Shown: positions 13,112 to 50,050, numbered from the stretch's first letter. The stretch: DNA of 64,000 bases from Alphaproteobacteria bacterium (GCA_965249845.1 CBDFNA010000002.1:78417-142416); one strand, 5' to 3'. Program-made: numbers and translations. Notes: generated by a model from the sequence alone, not told the origin.

Positions 13112-14944
13112 ATGCCGCGTGACCTCTTCGGCGCCCGGCCCGGCCCGATGCCCGACCGCAGGCCTGACCGCAAGCCTGACCGCAAGCCTGACCGCAAACC
13201 GGCCCGCCGACGCATCCTGTATTGTTGGCTGCCCTGCTTCGCGACCGACCGGGTTGCGCGGCGGCGGCCGGCGCTGGCGTTGCAACCCGTCGCCATCGTC
13301 CGGCGCGAGCGCGGCCGGCGCTTTGCCGTGGCGGCCAACGGTCCGGCCCGGCGGAACGGGGTGCGGACCGGCCAGAGTCTGGCGGATGCGCGCAGCCTGT
13401 ACCCCGCCCTGACGGCGGTCGACGCCGACCCGACGGCCGACAGCCGCCTGCTGCTCGATCTGGCGCGCTGGTGCACACGATATACGCCCTGGGTCGCGCC
13501 GGAGGCGTCGGCGGAAGACGATTCGTCCGCCCCTCTTTCTGCCCCTCGGTCCGTCGAGGCCGAAGCCGCCCTGCTGCTCGATATCAGCGGCTGCGCCCAT
13601 CTGGCGGGCGGCGAGGCGGCGCTCGTAGAAGATCTCGTCAGCCGGCTGCAGGCTTTCGGTTTTACCGCCCGCTGCGCCGTCGCCGACACCCCGGGCGCCG
13701 CCCGGGCCTGGGCGCGCTACGGCGATCCGCTGTGTCCCGTCATTCCCGAAGGCGCGCAGGCCGGCTGGCTGAAGCCCCTGCCCGCCGCCGCCCTGCGCCT
13801 GCGCGAAGCGGACACCGAGACCCTGCAGCGCCTCGGCATCGCCACGGCCGGCGACCTGATGGCCCTGCCCCGCGCCGCCGTCGCGAACCGCTTCCAGGGC
13901 GGTTCTATCGCGAGCGTCCTCTACCGTTTGGACCGGGCTTTGGGCGCCGTACCGGAAAGCATCGCCCCGCTGCCGGCGCCGGCAGACTACAGCGTGCGCC
14001 AGCATTATGCCGAGCCGATCGGCACGCCGGAGGGCATGACCGCCGCCTTCGAGCGGCTGCTGCTCGCGCTGACCCGCAAGCTGGAAGCCGCCGGCATGGG
14101 CGCCCGGCAGCTCGAGTTCGGGATTATCCGCGCCGACGATACGCTGGACAGCGTGCGCATCGGGGTCAGCCGTCCGGCCCGCGACCCGGCCCATCTGGCG
14201 CGCCTGTTCGCGCCCCGGCTCGAAGGCCTGGACCCGGATCCGGGCATCGAAACCGTCATGCTGAGCGCCGTTTCGGTCGAACCCTTTACCATAGAACAAC
14301 AGGTATTTCAGAAAGTTAGAGGACAAAGCGCAATAGAACAATTACCTGAGAACAGGCAAAACCGGCCAGCGCTGCCGGGCCGGACAGACAGCAGCGCCGT
14401 CGATGCGCTGATCGACCGGCTGGCCAACCGGCTGGGCCGCACGGCGGTTCTGCGCGCCCTGCCCTGCGAAACCGCCCTGCCCGAAACCCAGACCGGTTAC
14501 GCGCCCGCCCTCGACATCCGCCCCGACGACCCGGCGCTCGACTGGGCCGCCTGGCAGGCCCCGGAGCGCCTGACCGGCCCGGCCCGGCCGGTGCGCCTGC
14601 TCGAAACGCCCGAACGGGTCGAGGCGCCGGTTGAGGCGCCGGGAGAGACCGCGTCCAACGACCCGGCAGTCACCCCGCTTCCGGCGCCGCCCGGTGCCGC
14701 GCCGGGCCGTTTCGCCTGGCGCCGCCGGACCTTTCGGACCGTCGCCGCCGAAGGCCCGGCCCGCCGCCTCGGCCGCTGGTGGCACGGCGAAACCGCCGTC
14801 CGCGACTACTGGCAGGTGGCGGCGGTTCCCGCCGACGCTGCGGACGACATTTCGGACGGGGCCGCGCCGGTCCGCCTCTGGCTCTGCCGCGACCCGGCGG
14901 CAGGCCCGGCGCACCGATGGTCGGTCCACGGGCTGATGGGATGA
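13112..14944 (+). CDS. imuB: ImuB (inactive Y-family polymerase homologue)
   Basis: ILYCWLP, GVRTGQSLADARSL, LARWCTRYTPWVA, LDISGCAHL.GGE, LIDRLANRLG, RDYW...LWL. Start chosen from RBS gggggag. Confidence 0.9.
   Translation: MPRDLFGARPGPMPDRRPDRKPDRKPDRKPARRRILYCWLPCFATDRVARRRPALALQPVAIVRRERGRRFAVAANGPARRNGVRTGQSLADARSLYPALTAVDADPTADSRLLLDLARWCTRYTPWVAPEASAEDDSSAPLSAPRSVEAEAALLLDISGCAHLAGGEAALVEDLVSRLQAFGFTARCAVADTPGAARAWARYGDPLCPVIPEGAQAGWLKPLPAAALRLREADTETLQRLGIATAGDLMALPRAAVANRFQGGSIASVLYRLDRALGAVPESIAPLPAPADYSVRQHYAEPIGTPEGMTAAFERLLLALTRKLEAAGMGARQLEFGIIRADDTLDSVRIGVSRPARDPAHLARLFAPRLEGLDPDPGIETVMLSAVSVEPFTIEQQVFQKVRGQSAIEQLPENRQNRPALPGRTDSSAVDALIDRLANRLGRTAVLRALPCETALPETQTGYAPALDIRPDDPALDWAAWQAPERLTGPARPVRLLETPERVEAPVEAPGETASNDPAVTPLPAPPGAAPGRFAWRRRTFRTVAAEGPARRLGRWWHGETAVRDYWQVAAVPADAADDISDGAAPVRLWLCRDPAAGPAHRWSVHGLMG
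13151..13198 (+). repeat. 12-bp tandem repeat x4 in imuB 5' end (PDRR/PDRK)
   Basis: cccgaccgcagg cctgaccgcaag cctgaccgcaag cctgaccgcaaa. Confidence 0.9.
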
Positions 14945-40429: not shown

Positions 40430-40513
40430 GAACACTCGAACATAGATGGTCGGACCGAAGAGGTTAGACCGCCCCAGCGACCGGGCCGCCGGACAATGAG
40501 AAAGGAGAATGTT

Positions 40514-41212
40514 GTGGGTCTGGACCTCATACCGATGGGAAGGCCGAAGCCCGGCCATGAAGAGGAATGGCAGCGGCTGATGGAGACGCTCTACGAAGAC
40601 CGGGAGGTATCGGACGAGGACACGTCCCGGCGATTGGAGATTTCGGAGGCTGCCTACGAGACGGCGGGGGCGCCCCGGGTCGGTTACGACGAAGAGGCCA
40701 ACGCCTGGTACCGTGAACATTTCAAAAAACCGGAGGGACTGACCGACGCGGAATTTTTCGAGGAAGCCAAGGGCTATTACGCTCTCGGCACACTGGTTGG
40801 AAAATGCGACGGCGTTCCGCAATATTCCCATGGTTCGATAACCGACGAACTCGACGAGACGAGTTTCCGCGGCAAGTTTCTCGAATTTTACGAAGGGTTA
40901 TTGGACGACGATTTGCTGTACCGGGCCTGGACTTCGGTCATGCCGCCGGAGGAAGCTGTGGAATATGGGCAGGTCCTTCTGGCCAGCGCGGAAAACCCCT
41001 GGGTCGAATCCCCGCCCCCGCCGCCGCCTCCACCGCCACCTGAGCCCGGCTTTTTCGGCCGGCTGCTCGGCAGAAAACCACCGGAGCCCGAGCCGCCGGA
41101 ACCGCTGCCGACGGACGAAGACATCGAAGAGATGCGGAACATATTGCGCGCGGCCGGCCGCTGGTACATTTTCTGGGGCGAACGCGGACACCCGATCAAT
41201 GCCTGGTTCTAG
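40514..41212 (+). CDS. Hypothetical acidic protein with polyproline insert
   Basis: RBS aggag before GTG; open 232 codons between proB and proA; no family recognised. Confidence 0.75.
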
Positions 41213-42640: not shown

Positions 42641-42946
42641 TCAGGCGGGCCGGTACCGTTGCACAGGAATCTCGTCGGCGCGCACGCGCATCCGCGACGC
42701 ATCATGCCATGCCTGCATCCGCAGCAGCAGATCCATGCTTACATCGAACGCCTTCTCGACGCGTAGCGCCATTTCCGGCGACAGCGCGACCTTGCCGTTC
42801 AACAGGTCCGAAAGCGTCGCCCGGCGAACACCCAGAATCCGGGCGGCCTCGGTGACGCTCAGGCCCAAATCGTCGAGCACCTCCGTGCGAACGAAAGCAC
42901 CGGGATGCGAAGGGTTCATTTTCACCTTGACGCTGCCGGCCGTCAT
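42641..42946 (-). CDS. higA: HigA family addiction-module antitoxin
   Basis: MNPSHPGAFVRTEVL..LGLSVTEAARILGVRRATLSDLLNGK..LSPEMALR.EKAF. Confidence 0.9.
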   Translation of the reverse strand: MTAGSVKVKMNPSHPGAFVRTEVLDDLGLSVTEAARILGVRRATLSDLLNGKVALSPEMALRVEKAFDVSMDLLLRMQAWHDASRMRVRADEIPVQRYRPA

Positions 42947-44190: not shown

Positions 44191-44646
44191 ATGCGCCTCT
44201 GCCTGATCGCCGTCGGCAAGCTGCGCGACGGCGCCCCGAAAGAGCTGTTCGCCAGCTATGCCGGGCGTTTGCCTTGGCCGCTGAGCGTGATCGAGGTCGC
44301 CGAGCGCGGCAACGACCCGCCGGCCCTGCGTGTGCAGCGCGAGGGCGCCGACCTGCGCAAGCGCCTGCCGGGCGGGCCGCTGATCGTGCTCGATGAAACC
44401 GGCGCCGACCTCGCCAGCGAAGCCCTGGCCGAAGCCCTGGCCCGCTATCGCGACGTGGGCGCCGGCACGGTCACCTTCGCCATCGGCGGCGCCGACGGCC
44501 ACGCGCCGGAAACCCTTGCCGCCGCCGACCTCGTCCTGTCCTTCGGCCGCGCGACCTGGCCGCACCAGCTCGTCCGCATCATGCTCGCCGAGCAGCTCTA
44601 CCGCGCCTCGACCATCCTCGCCGGCCACCCGTATCACCGGCGGTAG
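44191..44646 (+). CDS. rlmH: 23S rRNA pseudouridine-1915 N3-methyltransferase
   Basis: LIAVGK, LDETG, FAIGGADG, SFG..TWPHQLVR.ML.EQLYRA..IL.GHPYHR. Confidence 0.95.
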   Translation: MRLCLIAVGKLRDGAPKELFASYAGRLPWPLSVIEVAERGNDPPALRVQREGADLRKRLPGGPLIVLDETGADLASEALAEALARYRDVGAGTVTFAIGGADGHAPETLAAADLVLSFGRATWPHQLVRIMLAEQLYRASTILAGHPYHRR

Positions 44647-44783
44647 GGCGCGCTTCTATCTCTCGAAACGCTATCGTCATTTCGACCGGAGCGTTGTGTT
44701 GAGAGCAGGAAAATACTGAACTGTGCGGCCCGCCCGATGCCGTACCCGGAGATATTGCGGGCACGCGCTTCGAACAACGGCAC

Positions 44784-44831
44784 TTGACATCGGATTTTTC
44801 CCAACATAATTGTTGGCAACAAATTTGTTGG
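44784..44831 (+). promoter_or_regulatory. Putative promoter with two tandem palindromic operators upstream of the ATPase pair
   Basis: TTGACA (44784-44789), CATAAT (44805-44810); palindromes CCAACATAATTGTTGG (44801-44816) and CAACAAATTTGTTG (44817-44830). Confidence 0.7.
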
Positions 44832-44835
44832 AAAT

Positions 44836-46119
44836 ATGGTCATGCTGAGAAAAGGCGGAAGCAACTGGGTTGAGGGAGACCGGTTCTTCGATCGGGAAAT
44901 TGAGCTCGAAGCGCTCGAAGAGCGGGTGCGCGACGGAACCCACACCCTGCTGACCGCGCAGCGGCGCATGGGCAAGACGAGCCTCGTTCGTGAACTGCTG
45001 AGACGGTTAGCGGAGGGCGAGGAATTCGAGACGGTCTTCGTCGATCTGGAAGCCGCCGCAGACCCGGCCGACGCGATTGCCGAGATATGCGTACAGGCGC
45101 GACCGCTAAGTGGGGTTTGGGGCCGGATCAAAGGCAGTTTCGCCAACATCCTGAAAGAGGCCGGCGAACATTTCGAGGAATTGGCCGTTGCAGACATGAA
45201 GGTGAAGCTCCGCGCCGGGATCGACGCGGGCAACTGGCCGCAGAGAGGCGATGCGGTCTTTGCCGCGCTGGGTTCGAGCGAGCGGCCGGTGTTGCTCGCA
45301 ATCGACGAACTGCCGATCCTGGTCAATCGGCTGCTCAAGGACGACAGGGATCGCATCACGCCGGAAGGAAAGCAGGCGGCGGATGCTTTCCTGAGCTGGT
45401 TGCGCAGGAACGGCCAAACCTATAACGGCCGAGTGTCGATGATTCTGTCCGGCAGCGTGAGCCTCGAACCGCTTCTGGAGCAGGCCGGGCTCAGTGCCCA
45501 CGCTAACATCTTTTCGGCCTACGACCTGAAACCCTGGAACCAAGAAACCGCCGTTTCCTGCTTGGGCGCGCTCGCCAAATCCTACGAGATCGGTCTTCCG
45601 CCCGCGATCCGTCGGGATATGTGCCGGCGGCTGCGCTGCTGCATCCCGCATCACGTCCAGATGTTCTTCGACAAGATGCATGAATATCTGCGGCCCGCGG
45701 GCCGCGAGGAAGCGTCGCAAGAAGATGTCGAGTGGGTCTATGTGCATGAGATGCTGGGCGTCCGGGGGCAGGCAGACCTGCAGCACTACGAGGGCCGGCT
45801 GGGGACGATTCTCGGAAGGACGGGTTATCCGGTCGCCCTCGAGATATTGACGGCGACGGCCGTCAAAGGCCGTCTCGATGGCGATGCCGTAGAACGCTAT
45901 CGCGCCTATTACTCGGCGTTGGACGGGCAAGAGGGCGAGGGCGTCCCGTCGGTCCCGAACGTCCTGCATGTGCTGCAGCATGACGGCTACCTGGAACGGC
46001 ATGACAACATCTATCGGTTCGTATCCGGCCTGCTCGAAGACTGGTGGCGCAGCCGCTACGGCGAGAACTTCGTGCCCGTTGTCGAATCCGATTCGCGCGG
46101 CGGGGGAGCAGGCCGATGA
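44836..46119 (+). CDS. P-loop ATPase (STAND/archaeal-ATPase-like) with C-terminal winged-helix-like region
   Basis: FFDREIEL, Walker A AQRRMGKTS, Walker B LLAIDE, sensor ILSGS; C-terminal L.HDGYL...YRF..GLLEDWW. Confidence 0.8.
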   Translation: MVMLRKGGSNWVEGDRFFDREIELEALEERVRDGTHTLLTAQRRMGKTSLVRELLRRLAEGEEFETVFVDLEAAADPADAIAEICVQARPLSGVWGRIKGSFANILKEAGEHFEELAVADMKVKLRAGIDAGNWPQRGDAVFAALGSSERPVLLAIDELPILVNRLLKDDRDRITPEGKQAADAFLSWLRRNGQTYNGRVSMILSGSVSLEPLLEQAGLSAHANIFSAYDLKPWNQETAVSCLGALAKSYEIGLPPAIRRDMCRRLRCCIPHHVQMFFDKMHEYLRPAGREEASQEDVEWVYVHEMLGVRGQADLQHYEGRLGTILGRTGYPVALEILTATAVKGRLDGDAVERYRAYYSALDGQEGEGVPSVPNVLHVLQHDGYLERHDNIYRFVSGLLEDWWRSRYGENFVPVVESDSRGGGAGR

Positions 46120-48575
46120 CCGTCACCGCCAGGAAGTACAATCCGGGGTTCCTCTCGGACGACGAGCTTGTCGCTTCCTTCTGCGTGCGGACCGGCGAGT
46201 TCGCCTCGATGGTCGAAGTGCTGCGGGACAGCACAGGCAAGGCGAACACCCATCAGATCGTGATCGGTCCCCGCGGCAGCGGCAAAACGAGCCTTCTGTT
46301 ACGGGTCGCCGCGGAGATACGCCGGGATGCCGACCTGTCGTCGCGCTTCTTCCCGATCGTCTTCGCGGAGGAAAGCTACGAGGTCTCGACCGCCGGCGAG
46401 TTCTGGCTCGAATGTCTCTCCCGTCTGGCGGACCAGGCGCCGCGCGGGGAAGACGGCCCGGACCTGCGCCGCACCTATGACGAGCTGCGGCAAATCCGGG
46501 ACGACAGGACGCTCGGGGACCGCTGCCTCGGCGTTCTCCAGGATTTTGCGGATCGCGAAGGCAGGCGTCTCGTAATGCTGGTCGAGAATCTGAACATGAT
46601 GTTCAGGGATATCGCGGACGACGATGCCGGATGGCGGCTGCGCCAGACGCTCCAGAACGATCCCCGGTTCCTCTTGCTGGCGAGCGCAACCAGCCGGTTC
46701 GACGAAATCGACAAACGGGACCGCGCTTTCTACGACCTGTTCCGGGTGGTGGCGCTCCGCCCGCTCGATACGGACGGCTGCGCGGCTCTGTGGCGGACAG
46801 TCTCTGGCCGCGAACGCGCGAAGAAGACGATTCGGGCGTTGCAAATTCTCACCGGAGGCAGCCCGCGACTGCTCACCATTGTGGCGCGCTTCGGCGGAAA
46901 ACTGTCGTTCCGCGAACTGATGGCCGATCTTCTCGATCTGGTCGACGACCACACCGAGTATTTCAAGAGCCATCTAGAAACGTTAGCCGCGCAGGAACGT
47001 CGCGTTTATCTCGCTCTCGCCGATCTTTGGAAACCGGCGACGACACGGGAAATCGCTGAAAGGGCGAGGCTCGACACCAGCAAGTGCAGCGCGCATCTCG
47101 CCCGGCTGACCGAGCGGGGCGCCGTGGAAGTGGCGGGGGGAAGTAAGCGGCGCAAGCTCTACTACCTCGCCGAGCGGCTTTACAACATCTACTACCTGAT
47201 GCGCCGCGCCCGCGGCCCGGCCCCGATGATAGAAGCCCTGATCCGATTCATGGAGGGGTGGTACTCACCCGACGAATTGAAAGAATTCGGGGCTCGACTG
47301 GCGCGTGAGGCGACGGGCTTCGATGCCATGACGCTGTCGCTCGGTCGGACAGCATTCGCGCGACTCGTCGAACTGCCGTCTTTGGCGGCGCACCGCGATG
47401 AACTGCTTTCGCTTGCGCCATTTACTTTCGCGGGCGCAACCGGTGGTCTTGCCAGCGAATCTGCAGAACTATCGGCGGCGAACGAGATTTTTAGGGAAGC
47501 CCTTGCGCTGACGGAGAATAGTCGAGCGCAGGAAGCACTGGATGCTTGGGACAAAGTCTTGCGGCACTTAAATTCGAGTGATGTTGCGCCTGTGCAGGAC
47601 ATGATTGCAATCGCTCTCTTCAAAAAAGGCGATACACTTGCCCAAATGAATCGAAGCGAGGACGGGTTTGCCTTCTGGGATGAAGTTGTCCAACGCTTTG
47701 GATCGGACAATGGGCCGATAACTCGAGTAGTAGTTGCTCTGTCCCTCATCAGGAAGGGCTTTGAACTCGCTCAGTTAAACCGGCCAGAAGAATCGGTCGA
47801 AGTATTGGATGAGGTTGTCCGGCGTTTCGGTCCGAGCGAATCACCGCAACTGCAGGAAGCGGCAATTATCGCCGTCTATTGCAAGTGCGTTGCCCTCGTT
47901 AAGTTAAACCAGCTGGAACAAGCCGTGTCGATCTGTAACGAAATCCTGAATCTCAACCAGAACAGCGCCACGCCTCATTCGCTCGAAATTGCTGCCTCAG
48001 CATTGATCGGCAAAGGCACGATACTTGTCGGTTTGAACCGACCGGATGAGGCGTCGGGCGTGTGGGATGAGGTCATACAGCGATTCGAAACGAGCGATAT
48101 ACCGCTAGTTCGCGACGCTGCTGAAACCGCAATGTTCAAGAAAGCGGCGTTCGAATTAACGAAGGGCCGGGCCAAATCAGCCGTTGCCGCAGCTAGTCGA
48201 GTGCTTGAGCAGGAGGGTGCCGGATTAGTGGAAACCCGGTGGCGAGGTCATCTGATCCGTGCGCGGGCACATTTAACTGAAGGCAACAACGCGGCGTGCG
48301 CAGAGGACGTCGAGGCTGTGTTGGCGACCCTTCCAAATCTCAATCCGTTCCCTAAGGATGCTCTCGACGGCTTGATCGAGCTGGCCGTCGAACTCGGGCT
48401 GGAGCAAATGCGCGACCTCATCGTGGCATCGGCAGCGGCCGATCTCCTGCTGCCGCTGACGACGGCGCTGGAGCTGGAGCTCGGGCTGGAACCGCGGGTG
48501 GCGAGGGAAGTCGAGGAGGTTGCCGAAGATATCCGGCGGGATTTGGCGGAGCGGCGAAAGGCGAAGAGCGCCTGA
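46116..48575 (+). CDS. ATPase + MarR-like wHTH + TPR-repeat protein
   Basis: ATGA overlap with upstream gene; GPRGSGKTS, atypical Walker B VMLVENL, TGGSPRL; HTH ATTREIAERARLDTSKCSAHLARL; repeated A...WDEVV.RF TPR-like units. Confidence 0.8.
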   Translation: MTVTARKYNPGFLSDDELVASFCVRTGEFASMVEVLRDSTGKANTHQIVIGPRGSGKTSLLLRVAAEIRRDADLSSRFFPIVFAEESYEVSTAGEFWLECLSRLADQAPRGEDGPDLRRTYDELRQIRDDRTLGDRCLGVLQDFADREGRRLVMLVENLNMMFRDIADDDAGWRLRQTLQNDPRFLLLASATSRFDEIDKRDRAFYDLFRVVALRPLDTDGCAALWRTVSGRERAKKTIRALQILTGGSPRLLTIVARFGGKLSFRELMADLLDLVDDHTEYFKSHLETLAAQERRVYLALADLWKPATTREIAERARLDTSKCSAHLARLTERGAVEVAGGSKRRKLYYLAERLYNIYYLMRRARGPAPMIEALIRFMEGWYSPDELKEFGARLAREATGFDAMTLSLGRTAFARLVELPSLAAHRDELLSLAPFTFAGATGGLASESAELSAANEIFREALALTENSRAQEALDAWDKVLRHLNSSDVAPVQDMIAIALFKKGDTLAQMNRSEDGFAFWDEVVQRFGSDNGPITRVVVALSLIRKGFELAQLNRPEESVEVLDEVVRRFGPSESPQLQEAAIIAVYCKCVALVKLNQLEQAVSICNEILNLNQNSATPHSLEIAASALIGKGTILVGLNRPDEASGVWDEVIQRFETSDIPLVRDAAETAMFKKAAFELTKGRAKSAVAAASRVLEQEGAGLVETRWRGHLIRARAHLTEGNNAACAEDVEAVLATLPNLNPFPKDALDGLIELAVELGLEQMRDLIVASAAADLLLPLTTALELELGLEPRVAREVEEVAEDIRRDLAERRKAKSA

Positions 48576-48643
48576 TCCGGCGGATCGAACGCCGGCCGCC
48601 TCTACCCGGCCGTGTGCCCGGATCGAACGCCGGCCCCCGCCCC

Positions 48644-50050
48644 CTACCGCTGCCGTGCCGCGCCGCTCACGTCCAACGCGGCTTCGCGGACGGCTTCGTT
48701 GTAGGTCGGGTGGGCGTGGAAGCAGCGGGCGAGGTCTTCGGCGCAGCCGCCGAATTCCATGACGTTGACCACCTCGTGGATCGTGTTGCCGGCCTCCGGC
48801 CCAACGATATGGGCGCCGAGGATGCGCTCGGTCTGCGCGTCGGCGACGATCTTCACCATACCGTCGGTCTCGCCGGTGCAGATGGCGCGGCTGTTGGCGC
48901 CGAACGGGAACCTGCCGACCTTGTAGGCGGTGCCGGCCTCCTTGAGCTGCTCCTCCGTCCTGCCGACCGAGGCGACCTCGGGCCAGGTGTAGACGATACC
49001 GGGCACCGTCTCGTAGTTCACATGCCCGGCCTGGCCAGCCAGCATCTCGGCCAGCGCCACGCCCTCCTCCTCCGCCTTGTGGGCCAGCATCGGGCCGGGG
49101 ATGACATCGCCGATGGCGTAGACGCCCTCGGCCCCGGTGCGGAAATGACCGTCGACCGCGATGAAGCCGCGCGCGTCGGTCCCGATCCCGGCCGCCTCGA
49201 GGCCGAGATCGTCGGTGAAGGGCCGCCGGCCGATCGCGACCAGCACCCGCTCCGCCGTCAGGGTTTCGGCGTCACCGCCCCCCAAATCGCCCGGGGCAGG
49301 TTCAACGGTCAGCGTAATCCCGGTTCGCGTCGCCCTGGCGCCGGTCACCTTGCGGCCGAGGCGGAAATCCAGGCCCTGTTTCTTGAGGATGCGCTGGACC
49401 TGTTTGGCGATCTCGCCGTCCATGCCCGGCAGGATGCGGTCGAGATATTCGACCACGGTGACCTGCGCGCCGAGCCGGGCCCAGACCGAGCCCATCTCCA
49501 GGCCGATATAGCCGGCGCCGATCACCGCCAGGGTCTTCGGCACCTTGCCGAGCGCCAGGGCGCCGGTCGAGGACAGGATGCGCTTCTCGTCGATCTCGAC
49601 GCCGGGCAACGGCATGACGTCGGAGCCGGTGGCGATCACGATGTGCTTCGCCGAATATGCCGTGCCGCCGACCTCGACCGCGCCGCTGCCGGCGAGCCGG
49701 CCGCGGCCCTTGAGGTGGTCTATCTTGTTCTTCTTGAACAGGTAGGCGACGCCGTTGGTGAGCTTGTCGACCACGCCGTCCTTGCGCGCCATCATCGCCT
49801 TGAGGTTCAGCGTCGCCGAGGCGTCGATGCCGTGTTCCGCCAGGCCGTGCTGCGCCTCGGCGAATTTCTCCGAGCTCTGGAGCAGCGCCTTGGACGGGAT
49901 GCAGCCGACATTCAGGCAGGTGCCGCCCAGGGTCTCCCGCTGCTCCGCCACCGCGACGCGCATGCCGAGCTGGGCGCAGCGGATGGCGCAGACATAGCCG
50001 CCGGGACCGGCGCCGATGACGATCACGTCGTAGCTGTTGGTTTCGGTCAT
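48644..50050 (-). CDS. lpdA: Dihydrolipoamide dehydrogenase
   Basis: IGAGPGGY, GGTCLNVGCIPSK, GAGYIGLE, AIGD..GPMLAHKA, HAHPT. Confidence 0.96.
   Translation of the reverse strand: MTETNSYDVIVIGAGPGGYVCAIRCAQLGMRVAVAEQRETLGGTCLNVGCIPSKALLQSSEKFAEAQHGLAEHGIDASATLNLKAMMARKDGVVDKLTNGVAYLFKKNKIDHLKGRGRLAGSGAVEVGGTAYSAKHIVIATGSDVMPLPGVEIDEKRILSSTGALALGKVPKTLAVIGAGYIGLEMGSVWARLGAQVTVVEYLDRILPGMDGEIAKQVQRILKKQGLDFRLGRKVTGARATRTGITLTVEPAPGDLGGGDAETLTAERVLVAIGRRPFTDDLGLEAAGIGTDARGFIAVDGHFRTGAEGVYAIGDVIPGPMLAHKAEEEGVALAEMLAGQAGHVNYETVPGIVYTWPEVASVGRTEEQLKEAGTAYKVGRFPFGANSRAICTGETDGMVKIVADAQTERILGAHIVGPEAGNTIHEVVNVMEFGGCAEDLARCFHAHPTYNEAVREAALDVSGAARQR

Follow-up and report, generated by a model that had tools for sequence, protein, structure and literature searches.

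The 64,000-nucleotide stretch of Alphaproteobacteria bacterium DNA analyzed here (GCA_965249845.1 CBDFNA010000002.1:78417-142416; hereafter the window, with positions counted from its first letter) carries, between rlmH and lpdA, a two-gene ATPase cassette that had been put forward in an earlier annotation (the original prediction) as a candidate undescribed defense or conflict system. The cassette spans ~3.8 kb, its own promoter and operator included, and is flanked by rlmH at 44191..44646 (+) and by the convergent lpdA at 48644..~50050 (-). Both open reading frames (ORFs) were confirmed, gene 1 at 44836..46119 (+, 427 aa) and gene 2 from an ATG at 46116 to 48575 (+, 819 aa), with an ATGA at 46116-46119 common to the gene 1 stop and the gene 2 start; the two coupled genes, their overlap and both flanks were thus found as described in that annotation. 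The source genome (4.28 Mb) holds a single copy of the cassette, which comprises the following features:

44784..44789, + strand: promoter -35 element TTGACA, read from the sequence and conserved together with the palindromes upstream of gene 1 in most related loci
44802..44815, no strand assigned: operator 1, palindrome CAACATAATTGTTG, overlapping the -10 element (sequence and cross-locus motif)
44817..44830, no strand assigned: operator 2, perfect palindrome CAACAAATTTGTTG, whose end lies 5 nt ahead of the ATG (sequence and cross-locus motif)
44836..46119, + strand: gene 1, AAA+ ATPase of the PF01637/Orc1-Cdc6 type (ORF, motifs, alignment, AlphaFold2 (AF2) model and PDB fold search)
46116..47315, + strand: gene 2 aa 1-400, STAND nucleotide-binding module (motifs, AF2 model and fold search)
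47463..48215, + strand: gene 2 aa ~450-700, tetratricopeptide repeat (TPR)-like helical-hairpin array, presumed sensor (TPR Pfam matches and model)
48216..48575, + strand: gene 2 aa 701-819, conserved C-terminal helical domain (alignment)

Gene 1 encodes the expected 427-aa ATPase with intact Walker motifs, Walker A being GKTS (aa 46-49) and Walker B DE (aa 157-158), and the predicted winged helix-turn-helix (wHTH)-like tail corresponds to a C-terminal winged-helix-like domain at aa ~349-409. As GKTS and DE are invariant in 32 homologues, the protein looks catalytically competent. A further conserved motif, CCIPHH, lies at aa 267-273. Pfam returned sub-threshold matches to ATPase_2 (PF01637), AAA_16 and AAA_22 and nothing else; the PF01637 score of 26.9 bits falls below the gathering cut-off of 33.2, and PF01637 is listed in the precomputed matches for most gene 1 homologues. 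The AF2 model (pLDDT, predicted local distance difference test score, 87.5) comprises an AAA+ base, a lid and the C-terminal winged-helix-like domain, and the best PDB folds identified by Foldseek are 2qen (E=2e-11, target TM-score (TMt) 0.69), 2fna and Orc1/Cdc6 2qby, with 1w5s and 1fnn also matched. Judged by this model, gene 1 is nearer in fold to PF01637/Orc1-Cdc6 AAA+ proteins than to the classic STAND clades. The two proteins can be aligned in the P-loop region only and are not close paralogues.

Gene 2 is a STAND/NLR-type switch consisting of an ATP-binding module with a degenerate Walker B, a wHTH, a TPR-like array and a C-terminal domain, and all of the elements ascribed to its 819-aa product beforehand (Walker A, an atypical Walker B reading VENL, a GxP motif, a MarR-like HTH and TPRs) could be located. 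The nucleotide-binding domain (NBD) contains GPRGSGKT at aa 51-58 and hhhVEN at aa 152-158, the helical domain contains the GxP motif TGGSPRL at aa 246-252, and a canonical TrmB/MarR-like wHTH occupies aa 292-364 (nt 46989-47207; Pfam match over aa 292-350). GPRGSGKT is invariant in 26 homologues, as is the GxP region, and V156-E157 replaces the expected Walker B D-E, so the protein looks like a nucleotide-binding switch with impaired hydrolysis. Pfam assigns AAA_16 (33.1 bits), a TrmB/MarR-type wHTH and TPRs. The wHTH appears in full H1-S1-H2-H3-wing order in the AF2 model (pLDDT 80), for which the best PDB fold is 6mfv (the STAND-TPR protein PH0952), then Orc1/Cdc6 and Apaf-1. The C-terminal domain, with the core ...SPAADLLLPLTTALELELG.EPRVA.EVEEVAEDIRRDL, is kept even in homologues without a TPR array; it has no Pfam match, and its conserved columns include no invariant R or H. 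An apparent PDB match of this domain to a transcription activator-like (TAL) effector (E=1e-11) proved to be the sum of 15 TALE-repeat matches of 2-6 bits each and was rejected.

TPR Pfam matches extend over gene 2 aa 458-700, modeled by AF2 as helical hairpins in units of ~42-43 aa. Identity between the window gene 2 and that of congener G004 is 87% over aa 1-400, 36% over the array and 73% over the C-terminal domain, and nucleotide similarity to congeners is absent over ~47403-48248. Across gene 2 homologues, which range from 364 to 1589 aa, the array measures 0 to >20 units; those in L023, L029, L041 and L047 have no array and retain the C-terminal domain. Three strains whose gene 1 copies are 100% identical and lie in the same chromosomal context encode gene 2 products of 833, 919 and 853 aa; entire 43-aa units and clusters of substitutions within the array set these products apart. 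No DNA-level tandem repeats were found in the TPR region of the window, and the array is therefore not the product of a recent DNA-level duplication. From these comparisons the array is mosaic and hypervariable, as would be expected of a recognition surface that recombines and diversifies, and the drop in identity and the changes in unit number among strains speak for the role of sensor that had been proposed for it. A second gene-2-like copy, partial or full, lies a few kb downstream of the cassette at L017:14561-15040 (-), L022:14910-16103 (-) and L033:14965-17370 (+), which suggests local duplication or stored alternative sensor alleles.

The pair belongs to a large family. Clustering at 90% leaves >2,600 relatives of gene 1 and >3,400 of gene 2, and a profile of the gene 2 ATPase module collects 2,524 representatives (50% clusters) at E<=1e-30. 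Pairing and neighbors were examined in 66 related loci (L001-L066) of species-representative genomes. In 63 of them the start of gene 2 follows gene 1 at a distance of 0-50 nt, the exceptions being contig ends or fragments, and pairing is likewise seen in plasmid-borne relatives from Clostridium and Moraxella with 24% identity. The pair is obligate, and the co-occurrence of homologous pairs elsewhere, named in advance as a check, was borne out. No third conserved gene was found near the cassette in the 66 loci, the best other neighbor cluster being present in nine loci only. These loci are spread over >10 phyla and include Alpha- and Gammaproteobacteria, Binatia, Latescibacterota, Gemmatimonadota, Chloroflexota, Acidobacteriota, Planctomycetota, Bacteroidota, Desulfobacterota, Nitrospirota and Chlorobiota. 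Gene 1 identity reaches 70-90% across records named Alphaproteobacteria, Bryobacterales and Chloroflexi, and the gene 1 tree is incongruent with taxonomy throughout, placing Paludibacter beside Desulfocapsaceae and Nitrospirales beside Rhodobacteraceae. Closer to the source genome, the cassette is present in 5 of 12 congeners, in none of the 28 genomes that were searched beyond the genus (12 genomes from other genera of the family and 16 from other families of the class) and in 4 of 300 evenly drawn other Alphaproteobacteria. The cassette is an accessory unit that moves horizontally. Plasmids seldom carry it (three distant matches); no recombinase accompanies the window copy, and an IS1595 transposase follows the cassette in another species. 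Several close relatives come from records with bin-style names of metagenome-assembled genomes, one of them 'Spongia_Bin9', and the carrier taxa Binatia, Latescibacterota, Rariloculaceae, Arenicellales, Dehalococcoidia and Gemmatimonadota resemble sponge-symbiont consortia. Going by record names, many close relatives appear to come from sponge-associated communities, and gene 1 identity of 60-85% across those phyla suggests recent exchange within one habitat, the habitat too being read from the names.

Within the genus, the rlmH-lpdA interval (window 44647-48643) is a variable spot. Congeners G002 and G004 have the gene order rlmH-znuA-porin-zur-pair-lpdA. Among congeners the interval encodes a ZnuA-like binding protein and a porin-like protein of ~550 aa, both His-rich, together with Zur; the pair is absent from G005, which has ~190 bp between zur and lpdA, and G001 has hipA-like fragments there (the intervals of G005, G001 and G004 are L084, L085 and L086, respectively). 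The zinc genes are absent from the window, whose copy of the interval has altogether lost them. The lower GC content that had been noted for the TPR region was found, at 0.52-0.56 over 47250-48250 versus ~0.70 in the flanks. At third codon positions the GC content of the host genes rlmH and lpdA is 0.91, as against 0.76 for gene 1, and within gene 2 it amounts to 0.79 over the first 400 codons, 0.56 over the TPR part and 0.71 over the C-terminal domain, values that mark the whole cassette as compositionally foreign and the TPR block as foreign inside the cassette.

The strongest functional clue, of which the original prediction made no mention, is an operator borne by the module itself. The operator motif, CAACA-N4-TGTTG, is 14 bp long, and its two tandem copies in the window cover 29 bp over the -10 and the transcription start, the predicted -10 (CATAAT, 44805-44810) lying inside operator 1. 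A generic promoter scanner did not call the cassette promoter because its spacer is 15-16 nt. In most related loci the -35 is followed by two, sometimes three or four, CAACA-N4-TGTTG palindromes; allowing at most one mismatch, 122 matches fall within 150 nt upstream of gene 1 in 63 loci versus 32 in the remaining ~1.24 Mb. The palindromes travel with the cassette across phyla, and a distant Clostridium cassette has a near-identical half-site pair, AACAAATTTGTTG, over the -35. In the source genome no second tandem operator turns up even when three mismatches are allowed, and of the four single palindromes two are at the cassette and the other two are within chance (scrambled controls, 0-2). Conservation with the cassette and uniqueness in the genome argue for a module-borne operator serving a module-encoded DNA binder, and the position of the operator at the promoter implies autorepression, that is, a cassette that would repress its own promoter. 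The binder is most likely gene 2, probably acting as a dimer through its wHTH, since this wHTH is canonical and highly conserved, whereas the gene 1 winged helix has a variable loop at the place of helix 2.

In one locus, L038 from Gemmatimonadota, the tandem operator occurs a second time in perfect form (CAACAGACCTGTTG-T-CAACAATCCTGTTG, L038:14121-14153), ~460 bp downstream of gene 2. It follows a small DUF2283-like ORF and lies upstream of a gene encoding a 230-aa protein with a NYN/LabA-like nuclease domain (ORF 14252-14944). In no other case was the operator seen before a gene other than gene 1, and the arrangement may reflect a co-regulated output or the remnant of another cassette.

Neither gene carries a recognizable effector. 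Searches of both proteins with Pfam, PADLOC, NCBIfam and by fold detected no nuclease, TIR, SIR2, protease or transmembrane effector, in agreement with the absence noted originally, and in nearly all of the best 150 representatives of gene 2 the nucleotide-binding oligomerization domain (NOD) begins at residue 1. Candidate effector fusions in long homologues (Card1_endonuc, KH_PARP14, GDH_HM2 and DUF6630) were rejected as sub-threshold fragments inside the TPR repeats, and the longest or offset representatives of gene 2 have TPRs only. The statement that the pair matches no named system also held, as no defense model or named system was matched in Pfam, PADLOC-DB 2.0 or NCBIfam 20.

The genomic neighborhood gives a mixed picture of the proposed enrichment in defense islands. 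The pair lies beside Hma and/or Septu genes in 12 of the 66 loci, typically in the order HmaC ... (PtuA PtuB) pair HmaB HmaA, and in the gene 1 tree every Hma-linked copy belongs to a single clade of 14 rows, with hosts in the Alpha- and Gammaproteobacteria, Binatia and Latescibacterota. Embedding in Hma has been used to predict defense genes, of which 7 of 9 tested were active (Payne et al., 10.1101/2024.01.29.577857). General enrichment was rejected, since Hma and Septu account for 4 of 113 immediate neighbors and the rest are housekeeping genes in a qualitative tally with PADLOC and Pfam (top 25 families listed); island residence thus holds for one sister clade, with housekeeping neighbors elsewhere.

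We compared the cassette with the known systems that it most resembles. Like the antiviral STAND NTPases (Avs/AVAST, bNACHT) and NLRs, gene 2 has an NBD-helical-winged-helix domain module, a GxP motif and a C-terminal repeat sensor, and its likeness to NLRs extends to the fold matches with PH0952 (6mfv) and Apaf-1, the hypervariable sensor and the residence of one clade in defense islands. However, Avs and bNACHT proteins have a fused effector domain, whereas the cassette family has none and starts with the NOD at residue 1, and the cassette has in addition a second, dissimilar AAA+ partner gene and its own operator; gene 2 matched none of the Avs and NLR models of PADLOC and NCBIfam. The two-ATPase layout is not without precedent: Kaur et al. 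(2021, eLife, PMC8195603) predicted an analogous two-STAND operon, a mobile counter-invader operon with the order ??+STAND+wHTH then nSTAND2+wHTH+TPRs+HEPN/GT4. The gene order is the same, the layout is identical up to the TPRs, both are mobile, and in both one partner is competent and the other degenerate; faint Pfam similarities, to DAP3 for gene 1 and to RNA12 for gene 2, agree with the neighborhood named in that study. The nSTAND2 P-loop is eroded, whereas gene 2 keeps an intact Walker A and has lost only the Walker B Asp, and the nSTAND2 C-terminus is HEPN or GT4, of which the gene 2 C-terminal domain bears neither signature. Homology to nSTAND2 was not detected, hhalign against 12 rows of the published alignment returning a probability of 10% for gene 2 and 6% for gene 1.

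The archaeal PF01637 ATPases (PABY2304, 2qen; SSO1545, 2fna) and Orc1/Cdc6 share the fold of gene 1 at TMt 0.65-0.69, whereas gene 1 shows 16-18% identity and comes from a mobile bacterial unit in which a STAND-TPR gene is its constant partner. The STAND regulators MalT, AfsR and GutR likewise combine an ATP-switched STAND core, a TPR/SUPR sensor and DNA-binding output; they have a LuxR or SARP DNA-binding domain, whereas the pair has only the internal TrmB/MarR-like wHTH, its only tandem operator in the genome is its own, and its distribution is accessory and mobile. With the Hma-embedded candidates of Payne et al. (10.1101/2024.01.29.577857) one cassette clade shares the position between hmaC and hmaB, beside Septu ptuAB, but no HEC or PDC model of PADLOC-DB 2.0 was matched and the window copy is not inside any defense system. 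Given the lack of a fused effector (Avs), of a regulon (the regulators) and of detectable profile similarity to nSTAND2, we did not place the cassette in a named family, and we file it as a variant of the STAND/NLR-like kind of conflict system.

We propose, with a probability of roughly 0.5, that the cassette is a self-repressed, effector-less pair of sensor and partner ATPases serving conflict or surveillance, with an output through DNA engagement and/or derepression, a reading that draws on sequence comparison and structural models. In the resting state, a cassette protein, most likely a gene 2 dimer acting through the canonical wHTH, would repress its own promoter. Binding of a foreign protein, from a phage or mobile element, or of a changed self protein to the TPR array would then lead to nucleotide exchange and to assembly of gene 2 with the putatively competent gene 1, an arrangement that could be likened to sensor/helper NLR pairs or to the active and inactive subunits of the origin recognition complex (ORC). 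The output would need no classical enzyme effector and might combine derepression of the cassette with DNA binding or remodeling by the Orc-like/wHTH assembly. A more specific version is doubtful: an immune-type receptor pair without an enzymatic effector, in which a ligand on the swappable TPR array would trigger a DNA-bound hetero-oligomer that blocks DNA transactions of the invader or the host while the operon is derepressed. The suggestion that the pair kills by depleting NTPs received no support.

Several observations weigh against a conflict or surveillance role. Searches with PADLOC-DB 2.0 and NCBIfam 20 gave only P-loop-level matches at E>1e-4, the best being mad8 at E=4e-4, and no effector domain was found in the window copy or in the best 150 of the 2,524 family representatives. 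The 18-row clade that contains the window copy has no link to Hma or Septu, and the Hma/Septu association probably goes back to roughly one ancestral embedding followed by spread with the island. Elsewhere the cassette mostly adjoins genes of housekeeping or metabolism, such as lpdA, zur, rluD, rpoH and those for aldolases and transporters; with the Hma link confined to one clade and such ordinary neighbors, context backs a defense role only modestly. No cassette copy was found in phage records. Decayed copies with stops or frameshifts occur in L036, L052, L057, L059, L061 and G012 (gene 1 copy at C3:53513-54775), which indicates that the cassette has decayed repeatedly and is dispensable. Lastly, the proposed operator binder is deduced from domain anatomy only.

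We also considered that the pair could be a stand-alone STAND transcription regulator of host physiology, akin to MalT, AfsR or GutR, in which a metabolite or protein would serve as the ligand of the TPRs and target promoters would be under the control of the wHTH. STAND-TPR regulators exist, AfsR is among the PDB matches of the TPRs, and non-immune STAND regulators have been noted (PMC13581612). Gene 2 has a canonical wHTH of the DNA-binding type, the operator is conserved, and the neighbors are mostly housekeeping genes. However, a regulon was sought and rejected, since the tandem operator is found at the cassette's own promoter only, the two other lone palindromes of the 4.28-Mb genome are within chance, and the L038 operator before the NYN-domain gene is the one exception elsewhere. 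There is no conserved neighbor or target gene and no LuxR or SARP output domain, and a patchy distribution driven by horizontal transfer, combined with a hypervariable sensor, would be atypical of a physiological regulator, which we consider unlikely.

Still less probable, in our estimate, is a selfish addiction or abortive module of the toxin-antitoxin (TA) type, in which one ATPase would inhibit growth, the other would neutralize it and the complex would autorepress the operon. The bicistronic overlap and the palindromic operators over the promoter are as in type II TA loci, the cassette persists and spreads with no mobility genes, decayed copies are common, and congener G001 has hipA-like fragments at the same site. 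The proteins, at 427 and 819 aa, are however far larger than TA components and show no recognized toxin fold, and a hypervariable repeat sensor would have no role in simple addiction; in addition, this explanation overlaps with an abortive-infection defense role and does not exclude it. Archaeal orc1 genes adjoin origin recognition box (ORB) repeats, and the Orc1/Cdc6 proteins bound to origin DNA among the best folds of gene 1, together with the 2-4 repeated sites upstream of it, could be taken to indicate that the pair serves the replication or maintenance of a cryptic mobile element, with gene 1 as an Orc1/Cdc6-like initiator on iteron-like repeats. This is very improbable, as the sites lie over the -10 and the start-codon region and do not flank an AT-rich unwinding element, the cassette stands alone between housekeeping genes of the chromosome, unaccompanied by an integrase, a relaxase or any other gene of an element, and it is rare on plasmids (the three distant matches) and was not found in phage records.

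Should the self-repressed sensor/partner pair be a defense or surveillance module, it would represent a very large unrecognized STAND family, with >2,500 clusters at 50% identity, in which the work is split over two different ATPases with no killing enzyme, breaking the rule that the sensor is fused to the effector. If the more specific version with a DNA-bound hetero-oligomer were true, the output of an NLR would be ORC-like DNA engagement in place of a nuclease, a protease or NAD+ depletion. The cassette is a compact unit without a recombinase that has spread across >10 phyla. Its conserved 14-bp operator offers a simple read-out, derepression of a reporter, for finding ligands of the TPR sensor, and the natural TPR alleles on a near-identical chassis form a ready-made series for specificity swaps.

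Two further ORFs were observed in the window upstream of the cassette. An ORF at 42641-42940 (-), between proA and nadD, encodes a HigA-type XRE antitoxin-like protein (MNPSHPGAFVRTEVLDDLGLSVTEAARILGVRRATLSDLLNGK...) with no intact HigB-sized partner visible, and may be an orphan antitoxin or a TA remnant. The genes proB and proA are normally adjacent; in the window they are separated by a 238-aa ORF at 40496-41212 (+), with a lower GC content of 0.58-0.60 and a run of 11 prolines.

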